From positions 124,001 to 188,000 of the forward strand of contig BROI01000010.1 of NCBI GenBank assembly GCA_027923505.1: a DNA stretch of 64,000 nucleotides, in the 5' to 3' direction. Positions 4,790 through 61,488 of this stretch are shown here, one piece after another. Both the position numbers and the translations under genes were made by a program. This DNA is from Mayamaea pseudoterrestris (Eukaryota). The notes under the pieces are model-generated. The model ran no database searches. It was not told where the DNA came from and was given only the letters and a program-made list of their open reading frames with translations. Positions within the stretch are counted from its first letter, which is position 1, and each line of letters begins with the position of its first letter.

Positions 4790-6620
4790 GCACTGCACCA
4801 AGTAGCTCAGTAAAGGCGAGAAGGAAATACCTTTTAAGCGCCAGTTGAAGGGTCACCTGCCTAAGAAGGTGCCACAGTTGCACCACCTAGAAGGTGCCAC
4901 AGTTGCACCAGTCAACCATTCTATGAGCACCTGCATGGCCAGACGCTTGTTCCATATGTTCATTTGGCGTTATGAAACCCTTCCATGGCATCCAAGTAGC
5001 TCAGTAATGGCGAGAAGGAAAAACCTTCTTAGCGCTGCTTGAAGGGCCAAAAGAGGTGCAACTGGTGCACCAGTGGAGCATCAGTGGAGCATCCAATGAG
5101 CACCTGCATGGCCAGCCCTTGTCCCATGTGGTCATTTGGCGTAACGAAGCCCCTCCATGGCATCCAAGTAGCACAGTGATGGCGAGAAAGAAAAACCTTC
5201 TGAGCGCTGCTTGAATCATCTGCCAAAAACGGTGGCACAGGTGCACCAGTGGAGCATCCAATGAGCACTTACATGGCCAAATCTTTGCCTATATGTTCAT
5301 TTGATGTAGTGAAAGCCCTCCATAGTATCCAAGTAGCACAGTGATGGCGAGAAGGAAAAACCTTCTGAGCGCTGCTTGAAGGGTCATCTGCAAAAAACGG
5401 TGGCACGGGTGCACCAGTGGAGCATCCAATGAGCACTTACATGGCCAAACCTTTGCCTAGATGTTCATTTGATGTAGTGAAACCCCTCCATGGCATCCAA
5501 GTAGCTCAGTGATGGCGAGAACGAGAAGGAAACACCTTCTTAGCGCTGCTTGAAGTGTCATCTGCCTAGAAGGCGTCACTGGTGCACCAATGGAGCATCC
5601 ATGAGCACCTGCATGGCTAAACCCTTGTCCCGTATGTTAATTTGGCGTGGTGAAACCCCGCCATGGCATCCAAGTATCTCAGTGACAGCGAGAAGGAAAA
5701 TCCTTCTGAGCGCCACTTGTAGGGGCATCTGCCTAGAACGCGCCATTGGTGCACCAATGGAGCATCGAATGAGCACCTGCATGGCCAAACCCATGTCCAA
5801 TATGTTCATTTGGTGTGGTGAAACCCCTCCAAGGCATCAGCGTAGCTCAGTGACGGCGAGAAGGAAATACCTTCTGAGCGGCAGTTGTAGGAGTATCTGC
5901 CTAGAAGGCACCACTGGTGCACCAATGGAGCATTCAATGAGCACCTGCATGGCCAAACCCTTGTCACATATGTTCAATGGGTGTGGTGAAACCACTCCAT
6001 GGCATCCAAGTAGCTCAGTGACGGCGAGAAGGAAAATCCTTCTGAGCGCTATTTGAAGGGTCATCTGTTTAGAAGGCGCCACAGGTGCACCAATGGAGCA
6101 ATCAATGAGCACCTGCATGGCCATACCCTTGTCACATATGTTCATCGTGTGTGGTGAAACCCCTCCATGGCATCCAAGTAGCTCAGTGACGGCGAGATGG
6201 AATACCCTTCTGAGCGCCAGTTGAAGGGGCATGTGACTAGAAGGTGCCGCTGGTGCACCAATGGAGCATCCTATGAGCATTTGCATGGCCATATCCTTGC
6301 CCCGAATGTTCAATGGGTGTGTTGAAACCCCTCCAAGGCATCCAAGTAGCTCAGAGACGGCGAGAAGGAAATCCTTCTGAGTGCCCCTTTAAGGGTCATC
6401 TGCCTAGAAGGCGCCACTGGTGCACCAATGGAGCATGGCGAGAAGGAACACATTCTGAGCGCCAAATTTGAAGGGTTATTTACCAAGAAGGTGCTACTGG
6501 TTCCTTCGAGTTGACCACTCTATGATCATTTTATAACCAGACCGTATCCCATATGTTCAATGGGCTTGGTGAGACATCTCGATGGCATCTAAGTGGTTCA
6601 GTGATGGCGAAAACTAAAAA
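4790..6620. repeat. Tandem satellite array, ~168-bp unit, about 10 diverged copies
   Basis: Anchor ggcatccaagtagc (or close variants) recurs near 4987, 5159, 5325, 5492, 5665, 5834, 6001, 6169 and 6337; the last two spacings are exactly 168. Confidence 0.92.
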
Positions 6621-6879
6621 TTCTTGAGTGCGCCCAAAATTAAATACGCAAAAAACCCAGGCGTTGATCACTGCAATGACACCTACTCGTTCCCGCTTGC
6701 TCCCCAAATTAATAATCACTTATTTTAAATTGCTTGAGGGCATTATTGGTTTTAATTATCCCCTATGAATACATGCTTAACATCCCTATACCTTCTTAGT
6801 AAATATTAAATGATTTTCAAAAAAAGTGATGTAAAAGATTGTTGGGATCAATACAGCGGAATGGCAGTCAAATGGCACG

Positions 6880-8720
6880 AAAGAATCGGAAAAGCGGATT
6901 AATAGGTTCACAACGTGCAATTGCTGTCCTCCCGCAATCGCTGTTCTTGGGGAGCGTCTTACATCCAACATGCAATTGTGTATTGGGTAGCGATGTAGAC
7001 AGCGGCTGCAATCTCATCGATTGCCAACAGCCCGGACATCTTTATTTTTTCTGAAAATTGTGAGTGCTGAAGTTATTCATGCCAAATATCGGCTGCTGGC
7101 TCCATCGCATGTTAGCACGTTTAAGCATCTGGTGCCTGTAAAAAGGCTCCGAGAATTGATCTTGTATGTAGCCGGGGAAGCAGGTCATGTCTTTGGTTTA
7201 ATGGGTATTTGTCTTTATACGAACACGCTTAAACACCCCGTTAGGCAGTCAAATCTCAATGGCATCGGCACCATTGGGCAAGCTATCTGAGAGCCAGAGC
7301 CAACTGAGAGCCAGTAGCGCACAACGGCTTCAAAACTACATTGAAGATGGTTAAGAAGACAATGTCTCCCTGAGTGACTCAAAGAGCCTTCCATGATAGC
7401 CACCCAGTCGCGAAACCACCTGCTGCTGCTCCCAGAAATTGCATAGGAGTTGGATGACCGCTGGTCCAACGCCATAGCCCTCTAGGATTTATAGAGTGCC
7501 CTCGTGACTGAGTGTGTCATACGTGTTTTGTAGATCTTTGAAGATCTCGTTCAGCGGGACCTGCTCGTTTGCAGCTAAAGGAGCTTCGTTTCAAGTACGG
7601 CAGTTTTGGTGCCCCGGTTGGCCCGAAAGCCATGGAGAGAGTCATGGAATTGCCCTATCCCCCGGTGCCCTCCACTGCTCTTAAGGATGAGTACCAGAGA
7701 TGACCACGCCAATTCAGTTGGACTTTCTCTTGTGCTGAACGCATGTTGCACCAGGGACACTAAGGTCTCTCAGTTGTGCCATTCTGGCAACTCCTCCTGT
7801 AGAGCTGCTGCTAGTCACGCCTTGAATCCTCCGAGCGCTTGCTGTAGGGTCCTGATGACGTACTGGCTCGAAGACGAGATACTGCCGCAGATACCTGTTC
7901 AGATGGCGCATTGTCAGGCACGTGAATAGGTTGACAACAACTGGAATAAGGTCCCCTGGACCACCTTCCGAATAAGTCCCTATATTATCGTTTGACAACA
8001 TGCACATCCGCGCGAGATGGCTTACTGGGGCAGTCACCCACATGTTTATACCATGCTTGTAGCCGATTCCTGGCACCCTGGAGATCATGAGCACATAGCC
8101 GGGCTTCAATGGCAGCTGTGCTTTTGGTCATTCTTAAATGCGTCGCGCTATTCTCCATTCTTCTGTTTGTCCAGAGTTGGGTTGGCGGCGGAGCGAGGCT
8201 CTCTTTTCAATCATCTTCCAGGTAGAGTTAGAGAACCAGGATGTCCTTGAGCCGGTTTCCTGAACAATAGGGGCTCTGTTCTCTTTCAGCTTCCCAAGCA
8301 AAGCATAAGCTTGCGTCTGCGGCCCACCAGGGTGTATCCGTAGGTGAAATTGCTTTTTACCATGAATTTAACGTCGGTTACTCCATAAAGGAGCAGACAT
8401 CCATGCCCAGAGAGGCAAATGCTCTGAATCTGGTTTGGGATATGCACGGTATTATGCGATCAATCCATAGTCATTCCCATGCATTTGTCTGGCTCCTGAT
8501 GGTGGTGAATCCATTGTCGCTGTTAGGGGGCTTTGTATGGTGTTCCTCCTCCATCTTAATCTTTGGGGTTGCTCTTCCGACGTGTTTCTAATTTGGCTGA
8601 TTTCTCTTGTCTTAAGACAACAAGAACTCTGTTGCTTCTTCTGGCAAATCCACATCTTGAGATCCTTCAAACGCTGGACCAAGGGGTCTGGCGATATAGC
8701 GGCTCTAAGGAACAAGTAGT
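6880..8720 (-). mobile_element. Decayed non-LTR retrotransposon (APE endonuclease + RT LINE)
   Basis: Minus-strand RT fragments LVLILKSSGGHRGIG, FHDSLHGFRANRGTKTAVLETKL, DLQNTYDTL..EGYGVGP..FWEQQQVV..GGYHG and FKRVRIKTNT*TKDMTC; APE-like remnants near 8300-8430; many stops, frameshifts and deletions. Ends approximate. Confidence 0.8.
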
Positions 8721-41886: not shown

Positions 41887-42252
41887 ACATACTCGATAGA
41901 TAGCTAACAACCACTACACCACCTTTCTTCCGGGTTGCGACTTTCATTCGAGCGGCTTCGAATTTTGACGGTTCCCTAAGTGACAAGCGCGCCGGCCGGC
42001 ATGGCGCACCCAAAATTTCCATCCAACCGACGTGCGCGTTGAGTGAAACGCATGAGCACCACCATACCATTTTTGATTGTTTCCAGCAAGTCGAGTAGTA
42101 CTAGTATTGCGACTACAATATAATCATCACAGAGACAACTTGCTAGTCTCGACGACGACCGAAAAACAGATTTGCAATAAGTTTGCGGCAGCCGAAACGA
42201 ACCGTTTTCACAGAATTTAAAAGCCGGAACGAATTGAATTCTTCAAAGCACC

Positions 42253-44607
42253 ATGCCAACCGGAGTCCATGACAACGAAAAACATGAATGCATCTTGCTA
42301 GAGCCATTGAATAATGCTTCTGCTGCAGCTGCGAATAATGACGAAGTGAATGGCGGAGGAGGCAACGACGCGGTGCATGACGCCCATGTGGACGGAAGCG
42401 ACGAGGATCAAGGCGTTGAGGTTGTCTTGGGCAGCAGCGGCGAAGGCGATGATGAAGCAAATCATGATGGCGAGGGCAACGAATGCAAGGAAGCGAACGG
42501 TGCTGCAACTCGACCCGACGATCAAAACGTCTTTCGCGGCCCCGTTCGTCCCCGCGTGCTGCACCGCGGACCTCCTCCTCCTCAGCAGCATCACGCGCAT
42601 CCCTACAGCACGCATGGCTCCGGTTCCTGGGGCTACGGACCTCCGCACTACCAGCCGCAGCAGCACTATCACGGCGACTACCCGCCGCCCCGCGCCTATC
42701 CACCATTTTCGTACGCACCATCCAATTCCTTTGACGCGAGTGATCCCTACCGAACGTCACACTACTACAGTCCGGGACCGCCGCCGCAGCAACAACAATA
42801 TCATCAATATCCGCCAAGCAGTCGCAGTCGATACTCTGATCATGTCAATGTCATTTCGCCGCATCACTTGACGCCGCGACCCCGCCGCATGGTGCCGCCA
42901 AGTCACAAATACCCGCCATCGTCGCCCGTCCGACGACCCAGTGGAAGGGTGCGCGACTATGCCATTTCGCGAAGGGGACAACAGCCAGTGTTGGAGGCAG
43001 AGTGGAATGTGGCGCAATCGCCGCAAGCGGGAGTCAAGGCAACTGCGACGGATGCTACTACAACAACGACAACACCTCGCAGCACGAAACAGCAGCAGCA
43101 GCAAGTCCCCATGGTGACGGACCCGTCGTTTGAATCGTCGCAGCAGCCGCAACATCCAGCCACGCCGTCGAGTGAAATACCGGAAGCTGGAGTTGCGCCC
43201 TTTTACTATGGCGCGCCGTCCTGGGGATCGTTCGACACTGGTTCACTGCCTCCGCCGCCGCCGCAGTATCATGAACAAGGCTACTATGGTCCGCCGCCAC
43301 CCGAGTCGCCCTACAGTGTCTACAACATGCATCCGCCGGCCATTACTAGCTCCAGTAACTACTTTCCGCAACACTCGAGCAACTTGTACTACTCGGAATC
43401 CTTTCCACCGCCGGCGCAGTATGGACCAAACGGATCCTTTTCCTACTCGTACGATGACCATGAGGATCGCATGGGGCAAACCACGTCGAGAGACTACTAC
43501 CATCATCATGCAACTGCAACTACCACCGAACAGCAACAACACTCTCATCCAGCAAAAGCCGTGACGCCAAACGCCTCTCGCAAGAAAAAGAGTGGCGGAA
43601 CAGCCGCCGCCCGCGACTTGCTCCCCAAGGCGGCCCAAGAGATTGACTTTGACGTGGCCAGTCCGCCCATGCAGCCAATCGAACCGGAAGGCGTTGAACC
43701 ACTGTGCTGCTCGCTGTCCGATGTCAATGGCTACGACGTACTGTGCGGCCGCGGCGGTGGCACCAATTCGCAGATTGGTAACCGGCGGTTCCGCAAACTG
43801 GTGCAGGACTTTCAGCCAATTTATCTACTGGCGCGGCGCAAGGAAAAGCCACTGCTGGCGCGCACCATTGTATTGATTATACGCAAGCGGGGTGGAAGGT
43901 TTTTGAAAAAGGATGATGAGACGGGTGAAATGTTTGAAGTGGGTGACGTGAAGGCGGAAGCCAAGACGAGTCAAGCGTTGCGTGAGGGATTGGATGTGCG
44001 AGCAACCAAGTCGGCGGCAGGTAGTTTGATGGACAAGAAGAAGAAGGACAAGAATGATTGCGAAGGCTACAGTCCCGATGATGTTTCGTCGCCAATGTCA
44101 GTCGACAAGGAGACGTGCAGTCCAACGAGTCGAGCATCATCGACGCGATCACCCAAGCAATCGTCGTCATTATCCTACGCCGCGACGAGTCGACCACAGC
44201 CGGAGAGCCCGCCGCCACTGCCTCGCTTGGTGGTGGAGGATGCCAAAAGCGTCAGTGGCGTGGTGCATCCCCACTCGCCCGACCAGTTGGAGTACCGCAA
44301 GCGTCGCCGCATGCGCGTTCCATCGGATCGCTTCTTTCCCGAGTTTTGTCCGCCGCGCGCCGATTTGGCGGGCCGACCGCCAAGTCCCATTGGAGGATGG
44401 AACGTGTCGTGTGGTGGTGGTGAATCGTCGTCGCAGCAGCTACATCATTCGGCGAGTCAGGATGATGATATTCGCTACCATGGTGATGAGGATGACACGT
44501 CCATGCCGGATGCTCGCGGTTGCGCTGGCGCCGCACTGGACATTGTGCAGGGTGCCGTGGCGGCGAGTGGGTTTGCCTGTCTCGCTCCGGCGAATTGGAG
44601 ACGATGA
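42253..44607 (+). CDS. DUF6824-domain protein with Pro/Tyr/Gln-rich low-complexity region (putative transcription regulator)
   Basis: DVLCGRGGGTNSQIGNRRFRKLV...GGRFLKKD...KTSQALRE. Confidence 0.88.
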   Translation: MPTGVHDNEKHECILLEPLNNASAAAANNDEVNGGGGNDAVHDAHVDGSDEDQGVEVVLGSSGEGDDEANHDGEGNECKEANGAATRPDDQNVFRGPVRPRVLHRGPPPPQQHHAHPYSTHGSGSWGYGPPHYQPQQHYHGDYPPPRAYPPFSYAPSNSFDASDPYRTSHYYSPGPPPQQQQYHQYPPSSRSRYSDHVNVISPHHLTPRPRRMVPPSHKYPPSSPVRRPSGRVRDYAISRRGQQPVLEAEWNVAQSPQAGVKATATDATTTTTTPRSTKQQQQQVPMVTDPSFESSQQPQHPATPSSEIPEAGVAPFYYGAPSWGSFDTGSLPPPPPQYHEQGYYGPPPPESPYSVYNMHPPAITSSSNYFPQHSSNLYYSESFPPPAQYGPNGSFSYSYDDHEDRMGQTTSRDYYHHHATATTTEQQQHSHPAKAVTPNASRKKKSGGTAAARDLLPKAAQEIDFDVASPPMQPIEPEGVEPLCCSLSDVNGYDVLCGRGGGTNSQIGNRRFRKLVQDFQPIYLLARRKEKPLLARTIVLIIRKRGGRFLKKDDETGEMFEVGDVKAEAKTSQALREGLDVRATKSAAGSLMDKKKKDKNDCEGYSPDDVSSPMSVDKETCSPTSRASSTRSPKQSSSLSYAATSRPQPESPPPLPRLVVEDAKSVSGVVHPHSPDQLEYRKRRRMRVPSDRFFPEFCPPRADLAGRPPSPIGGWNVSCGGGESSSQQLHHSASQDDDIRYHGDEDDTSMPDARGCAGAALDIVQGAVAASGFACLAPANWRR

Positions 44608-48496: not shown

Positions 48497-49466
48497 GGCT
48501 CAAGAAGCAAAGAGGATCGGTTCCAAATGCTATGCTTGAACCGCCTCGGCTTTAAGAAATTAAAAGCAAGAAACTCCGACAAATTTTCTCAAAACTCGAC
48601 AAGGCGGCAAGTTTCAGGTCGGCTCCAATGCTTTCTTCGTCGATGAAAATCTACCACTCGCAACTCGCAAATGGCTCCTGCGAATCGTTCTCAATGACTG
48701 CAAATTGCGATGATGCCGTTTTCGTGCCTTACGCCCTTGCCCTTTGATACGTGACGAGCGCGGCGATAGAATTCTGGTGCTGCTATGCGTTTCAATGAAG
48801 GTAACCCTTGCAGCAGATGACTTCCTGCGCCTGTTTTCAACGTCGCAGCAAGCAATATACGTCAATGAATTTAAGCAAACGGTTGCTTTCCTATCTCGCC
48901 GCGTTTCAATAAATAGATATCAGCTGTCAGTCGAGCGTCAGTGACGGAGCGGAGAAGCAAATCGTGGCTGGTGCGAGATCGGTCCTCTACTATATTCAGT
49001 TTCCTAGCCAAGGCTGCAGCTATAATTCTTCGACTTGTTCGTTTAGCGATTACAAGTCTCTCTCTCTCGGTATCGCACGGAGCAAGCGGAAGCGATTGTT
49101 TTGCGCCTCCCATTTTGATGCTTCATCGCGCAGTTGCCGCGCCATCCGGCATCACAATGTCGCACCACGAATGAAGTCACCGATGCGACACGTTGAGCGT
49201 TATCCGCCTCGCGCCATCGCGATCACAACTCACAACAGCGCGAGGAGACTACGATGCCAAAGCTCGGTGACGACGGCTATGCAATCCTCTACAATTTTAT
49301 ACGAAATAAATATACAACGGCAGCAGTGATAGCATGATCAAATGGACCAACTCTTTCCATATTGCTAAATTTCAGTGCTCAAATCGCATGAATTGCAAAA
49401 CCAGACCCTTGACCCTTGACCTTCACCGTTTCAGCAAGCAACTGGAATAAAAAAATCTAGCGAAAC

Positions 49467-51242
49467 ATGCTATCTGCAGCACGAATGGCAATTTTATCAT
49501 GGCTTGTTACAATAATCTTCCTATCCTTCACTAGATGGTATCATGGTGAGACGAGCAGCCCTGTGACGACGCTTCCAAATCATGTTGCCGATGCTGAACA
49601 CCACTATCATGTCATTATCTATCGCGCCACTCCAGCCGGAATCGCCGCCGCCATTGCCGCCAAGCAAACCAGCTCGACTGCCAGAGTCTTGATACTGGAG
49701 CCGACGGCTCGCATTGGCGGCATGGCCACGGAAGGAGGGATTGGCTTGCGCGATGCCTTTACCAACGACTTTCGCTACGCAAACGAAAACAGCTCGCAGT
49801 ATCAGTGGGGAAGACTTAACGCCAAGCATTATGGAATTAAGTCTCTCGTTTGGCAGCGCGACAATTGGGTCGGAGAGCAGTCCTTTTGGATATTGTTGGA
49901 GCAAGCTGGTGTGGAGGTGAAACTGAATAGCAACTTTATCGAAGGCAGCGCTGGTGTCGTGCTGGAGCGCAACAGCGATGACAGCTACAGAATTCAAGCC
50001 TTGCTACTGCAAAACAATGCAATCACCATACTCTCCGCCGACTATTTCATTGACGCCTCCTACGAGGGCGAGCTCATGCAGGCGACTCGCGTCGTTGACT
50101 GGACGCATGGTCGCGAGAGTCGAGCGAAATACAATGAACCCTTTGCCGGCGTTGGCAATTTCAGCGCGGCGCAGTTTCCTGGAAACGTCAATCCCTTTTT
50201 GCCGAATGGCAGCTTGCTCAAGTATCTCACGTTTGGTGACAATCCCAATTTGCGACTCGGTCAAGCCGACGACAATCTCATGGCGTACTCGTATCGAGTG
50301 TGCTTGACCAAGGATCCACTAATGGCCGTTCCAGTGACGCCACCACTCAATTACAACCCCGACGATTTTGAACTGGCGCGTCGCCTCATTCGGCTGGAGC
50401 TTTCATTGAACCGCACGTTGAGTCAACCGTGGCTGTACATGGACTACACTGGATACGACGCACGCAACCAAACCTTTGTCAAGTACGATGCCTGCTGCGG
50501 CCAAGGTGCGTTTGGCATTGACGCCGTCGGACTCGCCAAAGGCTACGTGAATGCGACGCGCGCCGCGCGAGCCACCATGGCGCACCAACACTTGTATTAC
50601 ACGCAGGGGCTGCTTTGGTTCTGGCGGACGGATCCAGTGGTGCCGGCGCAAGTGAGAAGGCAACACCAGGAGTATGGATTGTGCGGCGACGAGTGGATTG
50701 ACCATGGTCACTATCCGCGACAAATGTATGTCAGAGAAGCGGCGCGACTAGTGGGAGATCAGGTATTTACGCAACGCGATCGGACTCCGATCTGTCGACC
50801 CGACTCGATTGCAGTGGGTGCGTGGGGGCTCGACCAGCATGACATGCAACGAGTCACGTACTTTGACGGAGAGCAATGGATTGTCATGAACGAAGGGCTC
50901 CGCGGAGATGCAATGCAGCAGGGAGGTGTCTTTCCGTTTGAAATACCGTGCTGGATTATTCTGCCAAAGCGAAAGCAAATGACGAACCTTGCTGTGGTCA
51001 ATTGCCCGTCGGCATCGCACGTTACATTCTCAGCCATTCGTTTGGAGCCGACGTTGTGGCTCTTGGGACAAGCTGCCGGAGCTGCTGCCATGCTTGCCTC
51101 GACTTTAGAGTTGGGATCGTTGCATAATGTCAATTTTGGCCTGCTGCAACGAACGTTGAAAAGGCAAGGATCGAGAATACATATTCGCAATATAAGTGTT
51201 TGCGAAAGGTCGTCAATGGATCACTTATCCACGGGTTATTGA
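49467..51242 (+). CDS. Secreted FAD-dependent oxidoreductase (PF12831-like)
   Basis: ATPAGIAAA, IGGM, FIDASYEGEL, YVREAARLVG and SASHVTFSAIRLEP..LGQAAG motifs; intronless; N-terminal hydrophobic segment. Confidence 0.85.
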   Translation: MLSAARMAILSWLVTIIFLSFTRWYHGETSSPVTTLPNHVADAEHHYHVIIYRATPAGIAAAIAAKQTSSTARVLILEPTARIGGMATEGGIGLRDAFTNDFRYANENSSQYQWGRLNAKHYGIKSLVWQRDNWVGEQSFWILLEQAGVEVKLNSNFIEGSAGVVLERNSDDSYRIQALLLQNNAITILSADYFIDASYEGELMQATRVVDWTHGRESRAKYNEPFAGVGNFSAAQFPGNVNPFLPNGSLLKYLTFGDNPNLRLGQADDNLMAYSYRVCLTKDPLMAVPVTPPLNYNPDDFELARRLIRLELSLNRTLSQPWLYMDYTGYDARNQTFVKYDACCGQGAFGIDAVGLAKGYVNATRAARATMAHQHLYYTQGLLWFWRTDPVVPAQVRRQHQEYGLCGDEWIDHGHYPRQMYVREAARLVGDQVFTQRDRTPICRPDSIAVGAWGLDQHDMQRVTYFDGEQWIVMNEGLRGDAMQQGGVFPFEIPCWIILPKRKQMTNLAVVNCPSASHVTFSAIRLEPTLWLLGQAAGAAAMLASTLELGSLHNVNFGLLQRTLKRQGSRIHIRNISVCERSSMDHLSTGY

Positions 51243-51990: not shown

Positions 51991-53018
51991 CCTATACCAA
52001 ACATACAAAACACCCTTCTGATGGGTCACTAGGTATGCTTGGTCCGCAGTCGGGGCCTACCTTCTGAGCGAGCAGACAGACGACCACTTCAAGGAAGCAC
52101 TCAAAAGAGGATGGATGCAACAACACGCGCTTATGCAGAAGTTGCACAAGCCGCATGAATGTCAATCGGGTACTTTGCAATGCGCTTACTCCAAATGTAT
52201 ACATGCACTTCGTATTTGACTGGTCCGCAGCTTACGTTCGGGAAGACGGAATTGAAGTATTATCTGCTTCGAGCGATGCCTCAAGTCTTTATCACGGCCT
52301 TTGGGGTTACATTCAAAGCAGAGATTGAAACATTAGAGTCACGTCGCAGTCAATTTGAGCAAGCAGAACGAAACGGAATCGGTCGAACGGTTGAACGTAA
52401 AATGGACGTACTCGTGAGCGAAACAACAACGCTAGAGCGCGAATTAATCGATCGGAGGCGCAGGATCGCGACAGTCAGCAGCGACGCAACAGCAACAACA
52501 ATATCGGAACACCAACCAGTGCAATAGAAACAACACGCGACCAACATGCCGAGTCATTAAGCGTCGTCGCGAAGAGAAGCGCGGCGGCAACGGCAACAAT
52601 CGAGCAATTGAGACGGTGACAGACGCGCGGGAAACAACTACACGCAAACACGGCGCAAGGATCAACTTGAAATCGTCAGAACGAGAAGATGCGACAGTGA
52701 TAGCGACGTGCTTGTCGAGCGCCTCGAGGAAGAAACGATGAGTGAAAAGCCTTTGTTTCGTTAGAAACCAAAAAACTCTTGACTTAAACTCTCGACTGTT
52801 ACAGGTGACGCTATAGTGAGTTGCAAATTGCAAGGCAAAATAAATGTGTGCTGGCGTCGTGGCGAGTTTGGTCAATTCTCACTCTTCTACATAGCAGGGG
52901 AGTGAAGTTGCCCACAGCTACTGCAACGACTCACAATAGCATTCAAGTGTGCATACGTTAATAATCATTCATTCGATAATCCATTTGGTATGTATAGATT
53001 GTTGAGCGCTCGTACGCA

Positions 53019-53983
53019 TCAAATAAAATCCTCTCGAATCGGTTTCGATGGGTCAGCAGCATTCGTCTCGGCGTAGTTTCCCTCTAATCGCTCTACTTCC
53101 CTCTGCAGGCTTTTTACTTGACGAGCATAGTCATCGCGTTGGGTTTTAAGCATCCGCGCCTTTTTCTTGTACCGATGGAGTTTCTTCAGAAGGTCTTCAC
53201 GAGGCACAAGGTAGTCTTGACTGACAACTTCGTCTAGCATGTGAGACGTGTTCGCATGTCGCTTTCGAGGCTGAGCGCCATTCTGCGAGACTGAAGCATT
53301 AGGATCAAATCGGTGGGTATTTGTGTCGAGTGTCGCAGGTGGGCCAGTAGTATCAACATTTGCACTGGCGTCGACCTCTGTGTTTTTAAGCTCGTGAAAA
53401 ATGTCGCCAATCTCATTCGCATTTAGTTCCGTCTCGTCGCAGCGATTCGCATTTTCCAAATGGCTCTCGGAATTGTTGCTAATACTCGCCAATACTGCAT
53501 CCTCGTTGCCCTTATGGTTGTCGTCATCCTCCGCCGTTGCAAAATTGTCTACCGGTACAATGACACACTCATGCTCGTTATCAGTATTAATCACTTCGAT
53601 ATCGATATGTCAATCCTTATAGATGAATTTTAAATTGTCGATGCGTAAAGATGAGTGGTGAGTCGTTGATTGGCAAAGAACGTCCTATACACGCATAACT
53701 TACGTGACACGTCAAGTGGTGACGGCAATGCTGTTGGAGTTACAGCAATTTCAATGGCGGCTGATCCACTCTCTACTTTCCAGTCGTACTTGTAAGGATT
53801 TTTCTTGTACTGATAATGATAGGTGTGAAGATAAGTACTGTACTTTTGGGCGTTGGCTGCACAAAAACCTTTGGATTCGAGGAACTGCGCAGCAGTCATT
53901 TTCTCTTCATCTCGAATGCATTCTGATAAGTTATGATAATGCCACTCGATTGCCAACGGCATCCAGTATTCAGCGCCTTTCAT
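53019..53983 (-). CDS. Hypothetical protein with MORC-like C-terminal coiled coil (intron 53594-53703)
   Basis: A gtaagt...aag intron joins ORFs 53630-53983 and 53019-53594 in frame; the tail resembles that of the neighbouring MORC. 5' end uncertain. Confidence 0.65.
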
Positions 53984-54624
53984 GTTTTGGTTGTATTCGG
54001 TTGCTGTTTCCGTGGCTCCCCTAGCGGATGATTGCTGTTACTTGTACAAGTTTTTCTGTGGAAGTCGTTCACGTCATTGTTCCTCGTGCAGCACGAAGAA
54101 AATGTCACACTGAGTTACGGTACGATACGACAGACAGATTTTGCTAACTTCCCCATCCTTCCACTTACTGTTAACCGCGGGTTCGTTTCTTGTAAGGCTT
54201 ATAGCTTGAACCTCATCTGTGTCTACAGCTTATGAACAAGCGGATCTTGCGGTCTGTGACACTGATCCCCTTTCTCTGGGGGCTGGGAAGGCTTGATGAG
54301 GCAAATGAATGATATAACGACCTTAAGCACTTCGTCATATAGAAGTTCTATTGTCGTAGTATACAAGCGTCATTGACGGACAAACGGACACTCCCTCAAG
54401 ACTATCATATTATGGCCGCCAAAAAGCAAAGCAAGAGCCTGCAAATTCTTCTGTGGCTCGCCAAAACGACACCAAGCGCGTTTCAAAAGACTATCATTCG
54501 CCGCATCCTCTCCGCGCCGCGCCGTCGCGGACCCCGCCCCGCGCACCAGTCGTCACAATCCCACGATACCCATCCAATCCATTCGTTGCAAGCCTCGCTG
54601 TCATACTTGTACTACATTAGCACC

Positions 54625-57072
54625 ATGGCATCCATGAACGACGCGAGCGATCCGTTACCTGACGCTCCCATGGAACAAGACGACGATGAAGACGCGAACC
54701 TGCAAACGCAGCGAACGAACGGTGGAGGAGACGATCCTGCGGCTGCCGTCCGTGATGCGAGCGTCCAGTCTCCATCCACGAAACCCGTCACGCAACCATT
54801 TTCGTCTCCACACATTAATAAAACGACGACCATTGACGGCTGCAATCTATGGAGCTCGTGGACGCGCAACTACTCGACGCCGCTGTTGGCCTTTTGGGAC
54901 TTGATGGATAACTCGTTTGACGCGAGTTGTTCGAGTCATGGGCGCATAATCATTGAGGCGGATTATTGTAGCGAAAATAGTGATCATGATGGTAATGGAA
55001 AAGCAATGCCTGCAACCAAAAACGTTTGCGGCATGGTGGTGACCAATTCCTGCAAGCATCCCATTGCCGACTTGAAGGATATTTTGAAGGCTTACAATTC
55101 GGAAAAGAAGCGAAGCAGCAATGGTGAAAATGGCGATGGCGATGATCATCACGCGACTAGCATTGGCGAGAACGGCGTTGGATTGAAGCAAGGATGCGCC
55201 ACGCTGTCGGATCTGTCTTTCGTCTTGACCAAGAGTCGCTCGGGCGACGTATTTTGCAAATTTTCGCTCGGAGTCATTAGCAAGGATTTGCAAAAGTCGT
55301 CGGGCGTGTACTTGCCGTCGTTTGATTTATTGGAGCTGAGTCACGCGCAACGGAACGACTTGCTCGAGCGAGGAAACAACATTGACAACTCGCTCCATTC
55401 TCTCGTCTTCGCCAAGCTCCAAACGTTGGTCGAAACGGATCCGGATGTCAATCACGTGCTGCAAGTCTACGGTCAAGGCAGCGTCAAGGCTGGCATACAC
55501 AGTTTGGCCAAGCACTATGAGCGCATGCTGCTCGATTGGCGGAACGACGCGCACGTGTTCACGCTGGTGCTGCATCACCTCAAGCATTCCTCGAGTTCGA
55601 GTAGTGCAAGTAGTCATTTGGAGCAAGTAACACATGACAATGACGACGACAATGCTCCGTCTCCAGACAATCTCAAGCGCATTGCCGTTGGCTTGCGCAC
55701 CAAGCCGGAGCGCATGGATCAGGCCAAGACGGTGGGCGAGTTTTTGGGAATGATTCGCGAGGACTTGCCCAAGCGCTATCTTCACATTCAGAATTCCTTT
55801 TCTGTTCTGGTGGGTAACGTCAATGCGAATGTCAATGACAACAAAATGCAAGTGGAATTTAACTACTGGCAGCGCCGCTTGGTGGAAATGACGCACTTTC
55901 AGGTAATTGTCAATACGCAGCAACCACTATCGAGTGAACAAATGGCGCAGCGCAGTGTTGTTGCAAGTGAGAACAATGGCTACGCTACTGCACTAGGCTC
56001 CAACGAGTACTTGCTCAACGTGTACCTTGGCTTTGACGCGGATCGCTGCGCGAGCGACACGGAGCACAAGACGGCGGCCATGCACTGTCACTCGCGCAAG
56101 GCGGGGCGATTGATTAAAACGTTTCGGGATGCGCGGAATGACTTGTTTCTGACGAGTGGTGGCACCCAGTACTGCCAAGGCTTGACGGTGATTGTGGATG
56201 ATGTCAATGGCATGCTGCCGCTCAATCCGACCAAGCAGGACTTTGCCTTTGGCGAGCGGGCTCATGGTGAAGTGCATCGTGATAACATGGTGGCCATGGT
56301 TGGTGCAGTCACCAAGGTTTACTGGACGTATCACTTTGAAGTGACGCATGCTAACAGAAAGGAATTGTTGTCCAAGCAAATCAAGTCACTGGCCAAGGAT
56401 GTCAAGCGCTGGAAGAAGAATGATAGTTTCATGCCGTCGATTAGTGAATGCAACTTTTCCACAATTTCAGGCTTGGCCTGGAAGCTGTTCAAGAAGAAGG
56501 AAGGTCCGACGGCACTTCAAGTCAAGAACAAGCAAGTTCTCAAGCTGGTTCCTGGCAAGGACACACTCATCAAGTTCCCTATAGGCATTGCCAAACCAGC
56601 AAAGCAACCAGCCAAGAAGAAGAAGGCTCCAGTTGAAGCCGAGTTTGAGGAAGACGATGATGAACCCGAGCCCGAGGAAGCTGTTTCGTCGCCCTTGGCG
56701 GCTCGAGGATCACAGAAACGCAAGTCGGCCCCAACGAACACTGCACAGGCGGCTCCAAAACGTGCTGCGCAAGCATCGACCACCACTCGTGAACGTGTCG
56801 ATGCTCCCATGTCGCCCGAGGCGGAAATTGGTGGCATTCATGGTGAAATGGTCCCTTACACGGACTATGCGTTCCAGTTTGAGCGCGTGCAAAAGTACAA
56901 GGACAAGGCGCGCAAGTACCACGACGAGCGCAACGAAAGCCGTAAACGTGTCACGGAACTTTCCGCCGAAGTGGCATCGCTAAAGCAGCAGTTGCGAACG
57001 CTGGAAGGAAATAGTAATGCCAATGTTGACGACGGAAATCATGATGGTCCAATTCGAGAGGACAATATTTAG
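54625..57072 (+). CDS. MORC-family GHKL ATPase
   Basis: AFWDLMDNSFDA (motif I), SIGENGVGLKQG (motif III), LPLNPTKQDF (MORC S5 signature), C-terminal coiled coil. Confidence 0.8.
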   Translation: MASMNDASDPLPDAPMEQDDDEDANLQTQRTNGGGDDPAAAVRDASVQSPSTKPVTQPFSSPHINKTTTIDGCNLWSSWTRNYSTPLLAFWDLMDNSFDASCSSHGRIIIEADYCSENSDHDGNGKAMPATKNVCGMVVTNSCKHPIADLKDILKAYNSEKKRSSNGENGDGDDHHATSIGENGVGLKQGCATLSDLSFVLTKSRSGDVFCKFSLGVISKDLQKSSGVYLPSFDLLELSHAQRNDLLERGNNIDNSLHSLVFAKLQTLVETDPDVNHVLQVYGQGSVKAGIHSLAKHYERMLLDWRNDAHVFTLVLHHLKHSSSSSSASSHLEQVTHDNDDDNAPSPDNLKRIAVGLRTKPERMDQAKTVGEFLGMIREDLPKRYLHIQNSFSVLVGNVNANVNDNKMQVEFNYWQRRLVEMTHFQVIVNTQQPLSSEQMAQRSVVASENNGYATALGSNEYLLNVYLGFDADRCASDTEHKTAAMHCHSRKAGRLIKTFRDARNDLFLTSGGTQYCQGLTVIVDDVNGMLPLNPTKQDFAFGERAHGEVHRDNMVAMVGAVTKVYWTYHFEVTHANRKELLSKQIKSLAKDVKRWKKNDSFMPSISECNFSTISGLAWKLFKKKEGPTALQVKNKQVLKLVPGKDTLIKFPIGIAKPAKQPAKKKKAPVEAEFEEDDDEPEPEEAVSSPLAARGSQKRKSAPTNTAQAAPKRAAQASTTTRERVDAPMSPEAEIGGIHGEMVPYTDYAFQFERVQKYKDKARKYHDERNESRKRVTELSAEVASLKQQLRTLEGNSNANVDDGNHDGPIREDNI

Positions 57073-57132: not shown

Positions 57133-58647
57133 CTACGTGTTAGTGTGTTGAATGTACTGCTTCATGGCAGCCTCCACGCCATTGTCCGCAATGACCTTGA
57201 CCCATGTTGCAAAGTTTTCGCGGAAACCCTCATCATTTCCAACAGTCTTGCCATACACATTCTCCATGCGCAACCACGCATTTGGGTTTTTAGTGAATGT
57301 TTCCTCCGCCACCTTTTGCAAATTATCCCAGTCAGGGTCGTTGGACGGAATGGTTTCACCAGACTCCGTCTTGCCCTGGCAGTAGCGACACCAGAGCGCG
57401 CACACAAGCGCCAATCCATTCGTTCGTTCCACATTGCCCTCCTTGATGGCCTGCGCAACGCACGGAACAATAAACTTGCCTTGTCGATTCGATCCATCGA
57501 AGCAAATGCGATGAATCCGATCCTTGATTGCCGAGTTGGAGAATCGATGCTGAATCGTCTCCCAATACTCGATCAAGTCCGTGTCAGGCACGGGCGGAAC
57601 GCATGGCACAAGCTCGTGGCGCTCGAGCGCATTCAGAAACGGTCCAATGACTGGATGTTGGACCGCCTCGTGCACGTACTCGACGTTCAGCAAGGCCGCC
57701 GGATAGCAGAGTGACGCGTGTCCACCGTTCAGTAAGCGAATCTTCATGGTTTCGTACGGCGCCACGTCTTGCACAAACTGCACGCCCACTTGTTCGAGCG
57801 GCGGCCGTCCCTGCGAAAACTTGTCCTCCAGCACCCACTGCCGGTACGGCTCGCAAAAGACGGGGTAAACGTCCTCGTAACCAAACTGGTCCAAAACGTA
57901 TTGCCGCTCGTAGTCGGTTGTTGCGGGTGTGATGCGATCGACCATGCCGTTGGGAAACTGCACATGTTCGTCAATCCACTTGGCCAAGTCGGAATCGATC
58001 ATGCGCGCGAGTCCCACCACAACGTGGCGACAAACGTTGCCATTGTGCGGCACATTGTCGCACGACAGCACGGTAAAGGGCTTTTGATTAGAGTCGCGAC
58101 GCTTGCGCAAGGCTTGCACGATCAAACCGAAAATCGTGGTGGGTTCGTTAACGTGTTCCACGTCGTGAACAATCTGCGGATGCTCTTCGTTGAAATCTCC
58201 ATCCGCGTCTAAAAAGTAGCCGCCTTCCGTGACGGTCAGTGACACAATTTTGATATTTGAATCCAGTAGTTTCTCCTTGAGCATGATAAACTGCGGCGGA
58301 TCCACGGGCAAAAAGTCGATCATGCTGCCAACGATGCGCGCATTGACGCCGTCTTGGTCGTCGCGCTCCACCACGGTGCTCAACCAATTTTGCGGTGCGA
58401 GCATGTCGCGTTTGGTCTTGTCAAACGGCAAGACGCCGGCTCCCACCAAAGCCCAATCTGCAAAAAGTTTTGCGTCCATGTGAAACAAGTCGTCCATGTA
58501 CGTGGCCAAGTGGGCGCGGTGAAAATTGCCCACGCCAATGTGCAGCATGCCGGGTCGAATGTTGTTGGCGTTGTCCAATAAGTACTTTGGCACTTTAACA
58601 TTGGCGGCGGCAGCGGCAGTCAGCAAGTTGGATCTGGAAAGTTTCAT
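57133..58647 (-). CDS. Mannitol 2-dehydrogenase (long-chain mannitol dehydrogenase family)
   Basis: HIGVGNFHRAH, SLTVTEGGY, SCDN, FPNGMVDRITP, QWVLED and KIRLLNGGH motifs. Confidence 0.93.
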   Translation of the reverse strand: MKLSRSNLLTAAAAANVKVPKYLLDNANNIRPGMLHIGVGNFHRAHLATYMDDLFHMDAKLFADWALVGAGVLPFDKTKRDMLAPQNWLSTVVERDDQDGVNARIVGSMIDFLPVDPPQFIMLKEKLLDSNIKIVSLTVTEGGYFLDADGDFNEEHPQIVHDVEHVNEPTTIFGLIVQALRKRRDSNQKPFTVLSCDNVPHNGNVCRHVVVGLARMIDSDLAKWIDEHVQFPNGMVDRITPATTDYERQYVLDQFGYEDVYPVFCEPYRQWVLEDKFSQGRPPLEQVGVQFVQDVAPYETMKIRLLNGGHASLCYPAALLNVEYVHEAVQHPVIGPFLNALERHELVPCVPPVPDTDLIEYWETIQHRFSNSAIKDRIHRICFDGSNRQGKFIVPCVAQAIKEGNVERTNGLALVCALWCRYCQGKTESGETIPSNDPDWDNLQKVAEETFTKNPNAWLRMENVYGKTVGNDEGFRENFATWVKVIADNGVEAAMKQYIQHTNT

Positions 58648-59007
58648 TGTATTAATGATGATGATGAAATTTACTGGGAAAGGAAAATATGACGAGGATG
58701 AAGATGTACTTGTGGATCCAAAATCTTGTTCGCGCAGCTTGGATGGGACGAGTCTCGACGAAATTCTTCGAAAGTAAGTTGGTCGTCAGAGCGGTACTCA
58801 ACGGACTTGTTTGAAGAGCGCGGCAGCTATTGCGACCATGGCAACGCTCTCCCGTTCCAAATGTTCACAGTGAATGAAGAATGGCATGGCACTTGCATAG
58901 GCAAGTGGATTATTTCCTCTGGCTTACAAAGCAATACCAATATACTTCAAAATGATTGCTTACTAAGATTGGAAAATTATGAATCTCTAAACAAACATAT
59001 AAACATT

Positions 59008-61488
59008 CTACGACAAGCCGCACAGTTGCTTGTACTTTGTCAGGACCCGACTCGTGTACGCGCGGGCGGACGGCGGGTTGCACCGCGTTGAAATGGCCAG
59101 CGTTTGGCAGCTGGAAACGTTGGCGCTGCAACCACACTGCCGCTTGACAAGTTTGGCGCAAGTATTGGGCGCCACTGAAACCGGTAGTGTTGACTGCGGG
59201 GCACTGGATGGAAGGTTCGTCGTGACGGACTCGAATTTGGCGATGGATGGCTTTCTTACCGGAGTTCGGGCGGGCTGGTTGGTGGGAGGTTTTACCGGCG
59301 ATCTCGTTGGTGGCTTTCTGGTGGGTGATTTAATTGGAGACTTGACTGGAGCAACAGTAGGTAATTTTGCTGGAGCGCGGGTCGGTGGTTTCACTGGCTT
59401 AGCTGTTGGTTTCCTTGTCGGAAGTTTGGTCGGAGGTTTCACAGGCGCAGCTGTTGGCTTCTTTGTGGGAATTTTGGTCGGTGGTTTCACTGGCGCACCT
59501 GTAGGCTTTTTCGTCGGAAGTTTGGTTGGAGGTTTCACTGGCGCAGCTGTTGGTTTCTTCGTCGGAAGTTTGGTTGGTGGTTTCACTGGCGCCACAGTTG
59601 GTTTCTTTGTTGGAACCTTTGTCGGTGGTTTGACTGGTGCACCTGTTGGTGTCTTTGTCGGAACCTTGGTCGGTGGTTTCACTGGCGCATTTGAAGGAGG
59701 TGGAACTGGAGCAAGAGACGGCTTACTTGTTGGCACCTTGGTTGGAGACATAACTGGGGCGACCGATGGCTTTGTCGTCGCATCTGGAGCGATTGTCGGC
59801 CTACTTGTTGGACTCCTTGTCGGAGCCGCAATTGGAGCCACAGAAGGCTTTTTCGTAGGTGTCTTGGTTGGCTGCGGCGCAATTGGTGCTTTTGAGACTG
59901 GAGCAATACTGACGGGCGATTTTGTCGGAACCGGCGCAGAAATGAAAACGTTGCATGGGGACTCGATCGGATTGCACTGGCCGCATTGCGCTGGGAAGTA
60001 ATATGCGGCATTCAAACATGCATTGGGCTCATTCTTGGTAAGTAAGTAATTCTGGATGATGCTTCGACATGTACTAGTTCCCGATACAACCCTGTCCAAA
60101 ACTGACGACAAGAAGCGCGCGTGAGCAAGAGAAAATGCAGGCGGTTCATGTTTGGCGATTCTGCTCGTACCTTCGTCAGTGCAAATGTACTGGCATCCAC
60201 AAGTGACGTCCCTTTTCGAATCCCGAAAGCCTTCCCACTGGTTGATGTAAATATAAGGGATGTGAAGAATGAGATTCCAAGTTCAGCGAATGTCGAGGAT
60301 ATTAGCGAATGAACTTACATGCGCCACCATGCGAGCAACTTGGCCCGGTGTAAACTCTCCGTACTTGGCCGTGCAAGTGCTGGAAATGTAATTCCTGAAA
60401 GACAAAGGTGGAGGTAATGTGAGCGCCATCGTTATATTATGCAGTTCGTCACATTGAAACATCTCAAACATACTCACATGTGGTTCTTGACCGGATCTAA
60501 TCCGACGTCAATGCCGGGGATACTGTCACTGCAGGTATCGAGTGGAGGAGTGGTCATCCAGCATTTCGAGTATCCAGCCAAATTTTGCGTGGGACCTGCA
60601 TGACTTGGTGTGTCAGCCACCGAGTCCCCTGAAATTGTGTACTGGTAAAATTCGGCTCCTGTTACGTTGCATCCACCTTCAAACGTGTGGAGCTGTAGAG
60701 TTGAGCGCGTGTTAGCGGACGATAGCGAAACAACATCATCATGAATCATCCAGCAAACGTGTACGTACCAGTCCCAACCAGTGTCCTGCTTCATGAATCA
60801 TTGTTTGATAGCTCACTACGGGGTCGGAGAAAACGGGCGAGTACCTCGGATTGGCGACAAACATGGCATCCTGCGCAAGGTTCCACCAGACTTGCGGCGG
60901 ATAGTTGGCCCAACCAACCACATAGCTTTTCGCTTGCATACTTGTGTCGCAGACAAACACATTGAGGGCTTCAGAACCGCCTTTGCGCATGGCCTTTTTG
61001 ATCGGCAAGTTGCCATTGAGGTTTTGAGTCGTCTGGCAGTCGTAGTAGGTTGCATTGATGGTCACATCTGTTGCGGCATGCACAAACGTAAACCCAGTTC
61101 CAGCGAACCCCTTGTTCAATGCAATTACCATGTTGTCGCGATCAACGTTCGGAAGGACACCGTACGTTTCGTTCTTTTGAATGACGTGAAAGTATACTGG
61201 AATGGTTGCCGCGAAGCTTTCCAATCGGCGCGTTTGGTTATCGGCGTTTGCTTCCTCCCACTGTTGCACAATCTCGGCGGAGAAGAGCTTTTCCTCATCA
61301 GTCATGTGTGGAGCGGCGCATTCTTCTAAAATATTGGAGCCGAGCATCCTTTCATGTGAAGAAGAAGCTTGGGATCGAAGGAAAGACTTGTCCAAGGAAT
61401 GCGAGTGAGAATGATGGTGTTGGTGATGATGCCCTCCATGAGCATACGCTCCAATCGCCAAGGTGGTTGCAAGGATGAAGGAGTTCAT
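59008..61488 (-). CDS. Secreted M43 (pappalysin-like) zinc metalloprotease with Cys-rich module and KPT-repeat stalk; 4 introns
   Basis: Spliced HEAGHWLGL|LHTF, Met-turn NHM|NY, FTPGQVARM; CGC..CT..C..AC..CGQCNP module; PTKKPT repeats. Confidence 0.88.

Follow-up and report, generated by a model that had tools for sequence, protein, structure and literature searches.

A MORC-like gene of Mayamaea pseudoterrestris and a divergent small gene that shares its C-terminal tail

The divergent gene pair and its shared tail

The window analysed here is a stretch of 64,000 nt from Mayamaea pseudoterrestris (assembly GCA_027923505.1, contig BROI01000010.1, positions 124,001 to 188,000), and its subject is a head-to-head pair formed by a MORC-like gene, gene A (54625-57072, plus strand), and a small gene, gene B (53983-53019, minus strand; all coordinates are those of the window). 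Gene B is deposited as hypothetical protein MPSEU_000551500 (GKY95909.1, 269 aa, Mayamaea pseudoterrestris). An earlier note on this DNA had quoted the C-termini of both proteins, and these are present where it placed them. That is, the gene A open reading frame (ORF) ends at 57072 on the plus strand with LEGNSNANVDDGNHDGPIREDNI before the stop, and the exon-2 ORF of gene B (53019-53609, minus strand) ends with LEGNYAETNAADPSKPIREDFI, followed by a TGA stop at 53019-53021. The distance of about 640 bp that it gave between the two starts likewise agrees with the 641 bp measured here, provided that gene A starts at the ATG at 54625. The open frame of gene A extends from 54343 to 57072 on the plus strand and contains ATGs at 54412 and 54625, the second of which is the deposited start. 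The RNA-like contigs described further below begin at 54564-54568 and cover 54564-57035 without joints; the part upstream of 54625, which belongs to the 886-aa frame opened by the ATG at 54412, is probably not translated.

The main observation at this locus is that both proteins end in a similar tail. BLASTP of the last 74 residues of A against the last 63 of B gave an alignment that reaches both last residues, with an E-value of 5e-05 for a single comparison and identity in 23 of the 74 columns (31%). Coiled coils have a common composition, no more than 31% of the columns are identical and 11 positions are gaps, and part of the same region was also matched, apparently spuriously, by an EF-hand repeat protein (P0115), all of which would be expected if two unrelated coiled coils resembled each other by chance. 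We nevertheless consider this explanation highly improbable, given that the Smith-Waterman score of the tails was 74 and none of 2000 shuffles that preserved composition came as high (29.1±5.6, maximum 58). Furthermore, the alignment is anchored at both C-termini, where PIRED-I is identical, and the tails are reciprocal best matches among the 110 members of the gene A family: the best match of the B tail is gene A (E 2e-4; next 0.012) and that of the A tail is gene B (E 4e-4; next 0.016). Inverted DNA islands also lie beneath the conserved blocks, two of which are visible as inverted repeats (53155-53172/56895-56912, 89% identical, and 53021-53042/57049-57070, 82%). The sharing of the tail, for which the earlier note had asked for a pairwise significance, is thus well supported, and on these comparisons the homology of the two tails is real. 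Identity clusters in the blocks VP, YK-KAR, LEGN and PIRED-I, and the largest gap between the tails is seven residues long, that is, one heptad.

Over the 63 aligned tail codons, the proportion of synonymous differences (pS) was 0.81 over 41 sites, i.e. saturated, and that of nonsynonymous differences (pN) was 0.43 over 148 sites; the same codon is used at 13 of the 23 identical residues. The tail copy is judged to be old because the synonymous sites between the two tails are saturated. Most relatives of gene A also end in a heptad-like, charged helical sequence of the coiled-coil type, which is why the tail appears to be ancestral in the gene A family, and the copying most likely went from A to B. 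Upstream of the tail, the middle part of B did not resemble the linker of A significantly (271 of 2000 shuffles reached the score). The features of the locus are collected in Table 1.

Table 1. Positions of the features at the gene A/gene B locus, in window coordinates
Feature	Position	Strand	Remarks
Gene A, MORC-like GHKL-S5 ATPase gene, 815 aa	54625..57072	+	intronless coding sequence; deposited form P0005 100% identical
GHKL ATPase and S5-like module of gene A, 591 aa modelled	54814..56586	+	AF2, Foldseek, VIA-align
Gene A C-terminal tail	56848..57072	+	predicted coiled coil at about residues 818-868 (886-aa frame), then PIREDNI
Divergent intergenic region	53984..54624	.	641 bp between both start codons
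Gene B exon 1	53705..53983	-	93 codons plus 1 base at 53704; predicted three-helix N-terminal domain
Gene B intron	53549..53703	-	GTAAGT donor at 53703; two in-frame acceptors
Gene B exon 2	53019..53548	-	acidic, predicted disordered middle, then tail
Gene B tail	53019..53210	-	predicted coiled coil (residues 131-177 of P0002), then PIREDFI and stop
Plus-strand transcript intron 1	52816..52897	+	GTGAGT..AG; joint in X2 and X3, absent from X1
Plus-strand transcript intron 2	52988..53108	+	GTATGT..AG; joint in X2 and X3
Plus-strand transcript intron 3	53313..53426	+	GTGGGT..AG; one X2 contig; within the antisense of exon 2

Gene A and its relatives in diatoms

Gene A had been named a MORC ATPase, an assignment that agrees with its fold but finds little echo in its sequence. 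The Pfam family HATPase_c_3 matched gene A at 16.1 bits (E 0.012), below the gathering score of 25, and no CW zinc finger (zf-CW) was among the Pfam matches of gene A at E-values up to 1. A profile built from 60 family members gave MORC3 as the best sequence match in the Protein Data Bank (PDB), with an E-value of 0.0055. The structural evidence comes from an AlphaFold2 (AF2) model of the core (591 residues), which was built on the 60-sequence alignment A2 and reached a predicted local distance difference test score (pLDDT) of 86.3 and a predicted template modelling score (pTM) of 0.87. In Foldseek, the best rows for this model were all MORC3, MORC2 or MORC4, with E-values from 1.3e-10 (MORC3) to 8.4e-09, and Hsp90, TRAP1 and SMCHD1 ranked behind them. 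VIA-align gave the same picture: 11 MORC entries aligned over 321-379 residues with Z scores of 15.2-18.6 and a root mean square deviation (rmsd) of 3.6-5.3, the top entry being 5ix2_A (Z 18.6, rmsd 3.6, 322 residues), compared with a Z score of 15.0 for SMCHD1 and at most 13.9 for Hsp90 and TRAP1. In the alignments to MORC2, model residues 6-555 correspond to chain residues 12-551, so that the GHKL domain and the one following it are both covered.

By its fold, then, gene A has an N-terminal GHKL (Bergerat-fold) ATPase domain, the sequence match to which is weak, and the two-domain structural alignment, in which the S5 part lies within the whole core, places an S5-fold domain directly after it, an arrangement described as a hallmark of MORC proteins (PMC5651269). 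The domains listed as common in MORC proteins are GHKL, CW and a coiled coil (PMC8627505), and the C-terminal coiled coil of gene A, residues 818-868, is the helical interface in the complex model presented below. Taken together, the models indicate that gene A is MORC-like, a designation that is correct by fold only. The core has the same two-domain fold as animal MORC2, MORC3 and MORC4 (PDB 5ix1/5ix2, 5of9, 6o1e, 7k7t and 9cdf-j) and is followed, as in the MORCs, by a long linker and the C-terminal coiled coil. Unlike the animal MORCs, however, gene A shares only 10-16% identity with them in the structural alignments, its HATPase_c_3 match stays below the cut-off and no zf-CW was found in it. 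The CW zinc finger occurs in animal MORCs and not in all MORCs, and in its place some diatom members have a bromodomain, PHD or TAZ domain.

A further difference from animal MORC3 concerns the ATPase motifs, as seen in one profile alignment to that protein (E 0.0055). In this alignment, a nearly invariant Asp (LDLxDN) stands across the diatom family in place of the GHKL catalytic Glu, and a nearly invariant Asn (IxNNS) in place of the adenine-contacting Asp of motif II (DxGxG). By the same weak alignment, little or no variation is seen in the Mg-binding Asn of motif I or in the glycine-rich G-x-x-G-x-G lid (IGENGVGLKQG). In Hsp90 and GyrB, ATP is no longer bound once the motif II Asp is changed to Asn. 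The diatom MORC-like family may consist of atypical or inactive ATPases.

The gene A family comprises at least 110 proteins (P0005-P0114), for which the database names, where given, are of diatoms only; the nearest relative of gene A is 39% identical to it in the core. The GHKL family is absent from the precomputed Pfam domains of all 110 relatives, most of which have no Pfam domain whatsoever. Fusions to a bromodomain, PHD or TAZ domain occur in a few members (e.g. P0091, P0096, P0098, P0099 and P0101); they point to chromatin, and the family looks like a set of unannotated chromatin proteins. No description of a diatom MORC-like family or of a tail-only MORC partner was found in the open-access literature. 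The very end of the proteins may be a feature in its own right. That is, the last residue is I, L, V, F or M in 54 of 109 family proteins, some of whose C-termini may belong to truncated gene models, compared with a background frequency of 24%, which suggests a conserved short C-terminal motif separate from the coiled coil. The hydrophobic ends often follow acidic residues, as in ...REDF, ...VEEF, ...DLLQF and ...RQVSL.

Origin, coding capacity and transcription of gene B

The N-terminal segment of gene B, which had been called unrelated, turned out to have a counterpart elsewhere in the genome: exon 1 has its paralogue in the N-terminus of MPSEU_001006700 (P0116; GKZ00543.1, 534 aa), a Mayamaea pseudoterrestris protein encoded on another contig. 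Residues 2-67 of B are 52% identical over 66 aa to the N-terminus of this protein (E 6.3e-08 against 1.84 billion proteins), with a Smith-Waterman score of 157 that was reached by none of 2000 shuffles (26.7±4.9). P0116 belongs to no Pfam family, gave no usable match in the ESM Atlas, and no relatives were found through its N-terminal module. Exon 2 of B matched the remainder of P0116 only marginally, 13 of 500 shuffles reaching the score. On these matches, gene B is chimeric, with an intron linking fragments of two genes. As exon 1 copies another Mayamaea gene, B is more than a truncated duplicate of gene A; it would thereby be a clean example of a new gene made from pieces of two existing ones.

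The earlier note had rightly described gene B as lacking GHKL and S5 domains, in that the protein has no GHKL or S5 match and its model, which is poor for the protein as a whole (mean pLDDT 52.9), contains nothing but helices and disordered stretches. Helices are predicted at residues 4-19, 31-37 and 42-61, which make up the putative three-helix N-terminal domain, and residues 69-208 have a pLDDT below 50, the middle of the protein being acidic and predicted to be disordered. This middle part, between exon 1 and the tail, resembled nothing in the comparisons made. A Foldseek search with the B model gave no match at E-values of 0.001 or lower; its weak, non-significant rows (E 3-10) were mostly homeodomain or helix-turn-helix proteins, and may serve as a lead only. 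Orthologues were sought with exon 2, with the complete deposited protein and, among longer proteins, with exon 1; only B itself, P0116 and the EF-hand repeat protein P0115 came back. The last of these was rejected as spurious, its match covering about 45 residues at 33-40% identity and recurring 10 times.

The frame of gene B is open across both exons, which are separated by a canonical, in-frame intron. Of its two acceptors, the one at 53549 corresponds to the deposited model (P0004, 269 aa) and the one at 53594 to the model of the earlier note (284 aa). The intron proposed in the latter, 53594-53703, does have GTAAGT...AG ends and keeps the frame, but the deposited model has 53549-53703 instead. 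Codon-usage log-odds for exon 2 amounted to +44.7 bits (0.235 bits/codon) in the proposed frame, taken over 53022-53591 and hence including 15 codons of the form with the 53594 acceptor, and were negative in the other five frames. For exon 1 the score was weaker (+8.7 bits, 0.094 bits per codon). By comparison, four of the five training genes gave 0.25-0.36 bits/codon, and the fifth 0.04. Gene B looks protein-coding by these measures, and we infer that it is translated.

Transcription was considered using four sequencing runs (X1-X4), the kind of which is unrecorded. Run X1 covers the whole window at even depth and without joints, and X2-X4 were treated as RNA-like on account of their genic coverage and of GT..AG joints that are absent from X1. 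The X2-X4 contigs leave 53467-54563 uncovered, a gap that comprises exon 1 and the intron of gene B and the intergenic region, and which is no evidence either way. On the plus strand, an RNA antisense to gene B extends over 52239-53466, being continuous, by record offsets, with contigs that start near 52239. The second of its introns (Table 1) lies opposite the final 29 codons and the stop of gene B. The spliced plus-strand RNA has no long ORF, with stops in all frames; it could represent either a natural antisense RNA or the long spliced 3' untranslated region (UTR) of an unmodelled plus-strand gene at about 51.8-52.5 kb.

These data bear on the possibility that B is not a functional protein gene, but an ORF lying over an old mosaic of fragments, at a locus used, if at all, as a plus-strand noncoding RNA. 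The sole spliced RNA-like contigs are indeed of the plus strand, with three GT..AG introns and found in two of the three RNA-like runs, no orthologue of B came out of the protein searches, the middle 140 residues of the protein are predicted to be disordered and resemble nothing, and the codon score of exon 1 is weak. We still regard this possibility as rather unlikely, as the 284-codon frame is open over two pieces of different origin and across the canonical intron between them, and neutral sequence as old as the saturated synonymous sites of the tail imply should have acquired stops or frameshifts. Moreover, coding-like codon usage is confined to the proposed frame, and the similarity of the tails is held in blocks and has not decayed evenly. 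If B is unexpressed, a modest remainder is left, namely a MORC-like family to annotate and an antisense RNA.

Predicted pairing of A and B and its setting

The complex of the two tails was predicted from the last 92 residues of A and the last 86 residues of B, in three runs and with three controls. The A-B complex scored 0.63 (0.62-0.64 among the runs) and the best control 0.01; in the calibration of the tool, done on microbes, scores this high were obtained for 51 of 78 solved complexes and for 2 of 108 mismatched pairs. Contacts agreed between the runs at a level of at least 82%, and the partner pLDDT was at least 70. The predicted interface is a parallel coiled coil of A residues 818-868 with B residues 131-177, in which the offset between contacting residues is constant at 688 (836/148, 850/162 and 854/166), and this is the homologous register, with Y829 facing Y141 and A833 facing A145. 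The model thus supports a parallel, in-register coiled-coil heterodimer of A and B. The suggestion of the earlier note that B could form a heterodimer with the MORC protein gains from the difference between 0.63 and 0.01, although a prediction of this kind supports binding and does not show it.

The tentative explanation that we prefer is that B, a chimera born of an old duplication in a young lineage, has kept its ability to dock on the dimerisation helix of A, so as to give a MORC dimer with one head or to bring in the N-terminal domain of B. Under this explanation, exon 1 of B would have arisen as a copy of the 5' end of MPSEU_001006700, B being restricted to Mayamaea as far as is visible. 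The end of exon 2 would go back to a partial, inverted duplication, long ago, of the 3' end of neighbouring gene A that took in a coiled coil of about 50 residues and the short terminal motif PIRED-x-I. B would then pair with A through the parallel, in-register coiled coil. The resulting heterodimer would have one GHKL head and could not, by itself, close the ATP-driven N-terminal clamp, so that B would act like a microProtein, as a poison subunit, or alternatively as an adaptor through its own three-helix N-terminal domain. The spliced antisense RNA of the plus strand, which lies over the tail exon, may restrain the expression of B.

A different outcome, which seems to us somewhat improbable, is that B is a translated chimera with no role as a partner of A, in which the coiled coil has diverged to form homodimers or to pair elsewhere. 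The two proteins would then have in common only their ancestry and perhaps the PIRED-x-I motif, which could bring each of them, independently or in competition, to one third protein. The tails are 31% identical and their synonymous sites saturated, implying a long separation. Also in keeping with such a divergence, the best-conserved block (the last 7 residues, with 82% DNA identity over 22 nt) lies outside the predicted interface, and the C-terminal motif is a family feature in its own right, with hydrophobic ends in 54 of 109 proteins compared with 24%. The coding signals of B (pS/pN and codon usage) fit this outcome too. It is less easily reconciled with the complex prediction, which scores highly and aligns the two helices in the homologous register, and with the head-to-head position, which is easier to understand if the pair cooperates, yet local duplication alone also gives adjacency.

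Several points weigh against B as a docking partner of A, a reading that draws on one species and one prediction. The A-B score was compared with unrelated proteins and not with other coiled coils or homodimers of either tail, and close relatives of a true partner also tend to pass the complex test. No contig carries a sense transcript of B or its intron, the intron region being outside the RNA-like coverage, and the RNA-like contigs that do run across the tail exon (X2 and X3) are spliced on the plus strand, that is, antisense. With a pN as high as 0.43 and an alignment picked for maximal similarity, the argument from the ratio of nonsynonymous to synonymous substitution rates (dN/dS) is no more than suggestive. 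Neither 1.84 billion representative proteins nor 5.8 billion word-indexed ones yielded a relative of the whole of B; this absence says little, since no close relative of Mayamaea is apparent in the databases (the nearest relative of gene A being only 39% identical). A second copy of the tail beside a family gene was found in 0 of 40 metagenome loci, a weak negative as the 40 were picked by eye out of 80 (longer loci with flanks) and many of the flanks are short. Finally, given the atypical ATPase motifs of gene A, the clamp logic of the animal MORCs may not necessarily apply to it.

The MORC coiled coil is an element of constitutive MORC dimers, as in MORC2, and the clamp model is built around this C-terminal dimer. 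Partners of MORCs can arise by duplication, since Arabidopsis MORC6 pairs with MORC1/2, but the partners in these plant heteromers are full-length ATPases, whereas B has no ATPase domain. For MORC2, dimerisation is described as taking place through the C-terminal coiled coil (PMC6892150), i.e. the kind of element that B has in common with gene A.

Known targets of microProteins are mostly transcription factors and photoreceptors, and no MORC-directed microProtein was found in the open-access literature. The definition given for a microProtein is that it has the interaction element of a larger, related protein without the catalytic or functional domains of the latter (PMC7534434, PMC9638782). 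Like LITTLE ZIPPER, Id and miP1a/b, B keeps the putative interaction element of gene A without its ATPase domains. An adaptor role for the additional N-terminal domain of B would also have a parallel in miP1a/b, which are described as bridging their target to a third protein (PMC4807768). However, microProteins are characterised as single-domain proteins below 20 kDa (PMC9638782), whereas B, with 269-284 aa (an estimated 31 kDa or so) and a second domain of separate origin, is neither that small nor of a single domain. B as a microProtein-like MORC partner is plausible and unproven.

How MORC ATPases are directed to their targets and inactivated is still an open question, be it in animals, plants or parasites. 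If B does pair with A, a tail-only partner would be a simple handle on the clamp model (one head versus two), as well as an entry point to chromatin silencing by a diatom-wide GHKL family that is unlabelled in current domain libraries. In the broadest version, which we think is decidedly unlikely as a whole, exon shuffling would have produced an ATPase-less MORC subunit with a possibly DNA-binding three-helix domain, held in check by an antisense RNA, that is, a genetically encoded switch or targeting adaptor of MORC-type silencing, born de novo beside its target. This version takes as its starting point a large and so far unnamed family of MORC-like proteins in diatoms.

The ORFs neighbouring the gene pair are ordinary. 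In a region at 51.8-52.1 kb, a retrotransposon relic was suspected by eye and rejected, Pfam giving no reverse-transcriptase match, and transposon domains were likewise absent from the neighbouring ORFs scanned. On one side of the pair lie, on the plus strand, an ORF with a DUF6824 domain (42238-44604) and one for a FAD-dependent oxidoreductase (49461-51239), and downstream of gene A, on the minus strand, a mannitol dehydrogenase (57136-58785) and a PT-repeat protein (59011-60282). Among the metagenome loci, paralogues of about 55% identity flank the family gene in L064 (4244-5296 versus 2-430) and in the near-identical L065 (11106-12158 versus 6345-7292); these flanking paralogues are copies of another, downstream gene.

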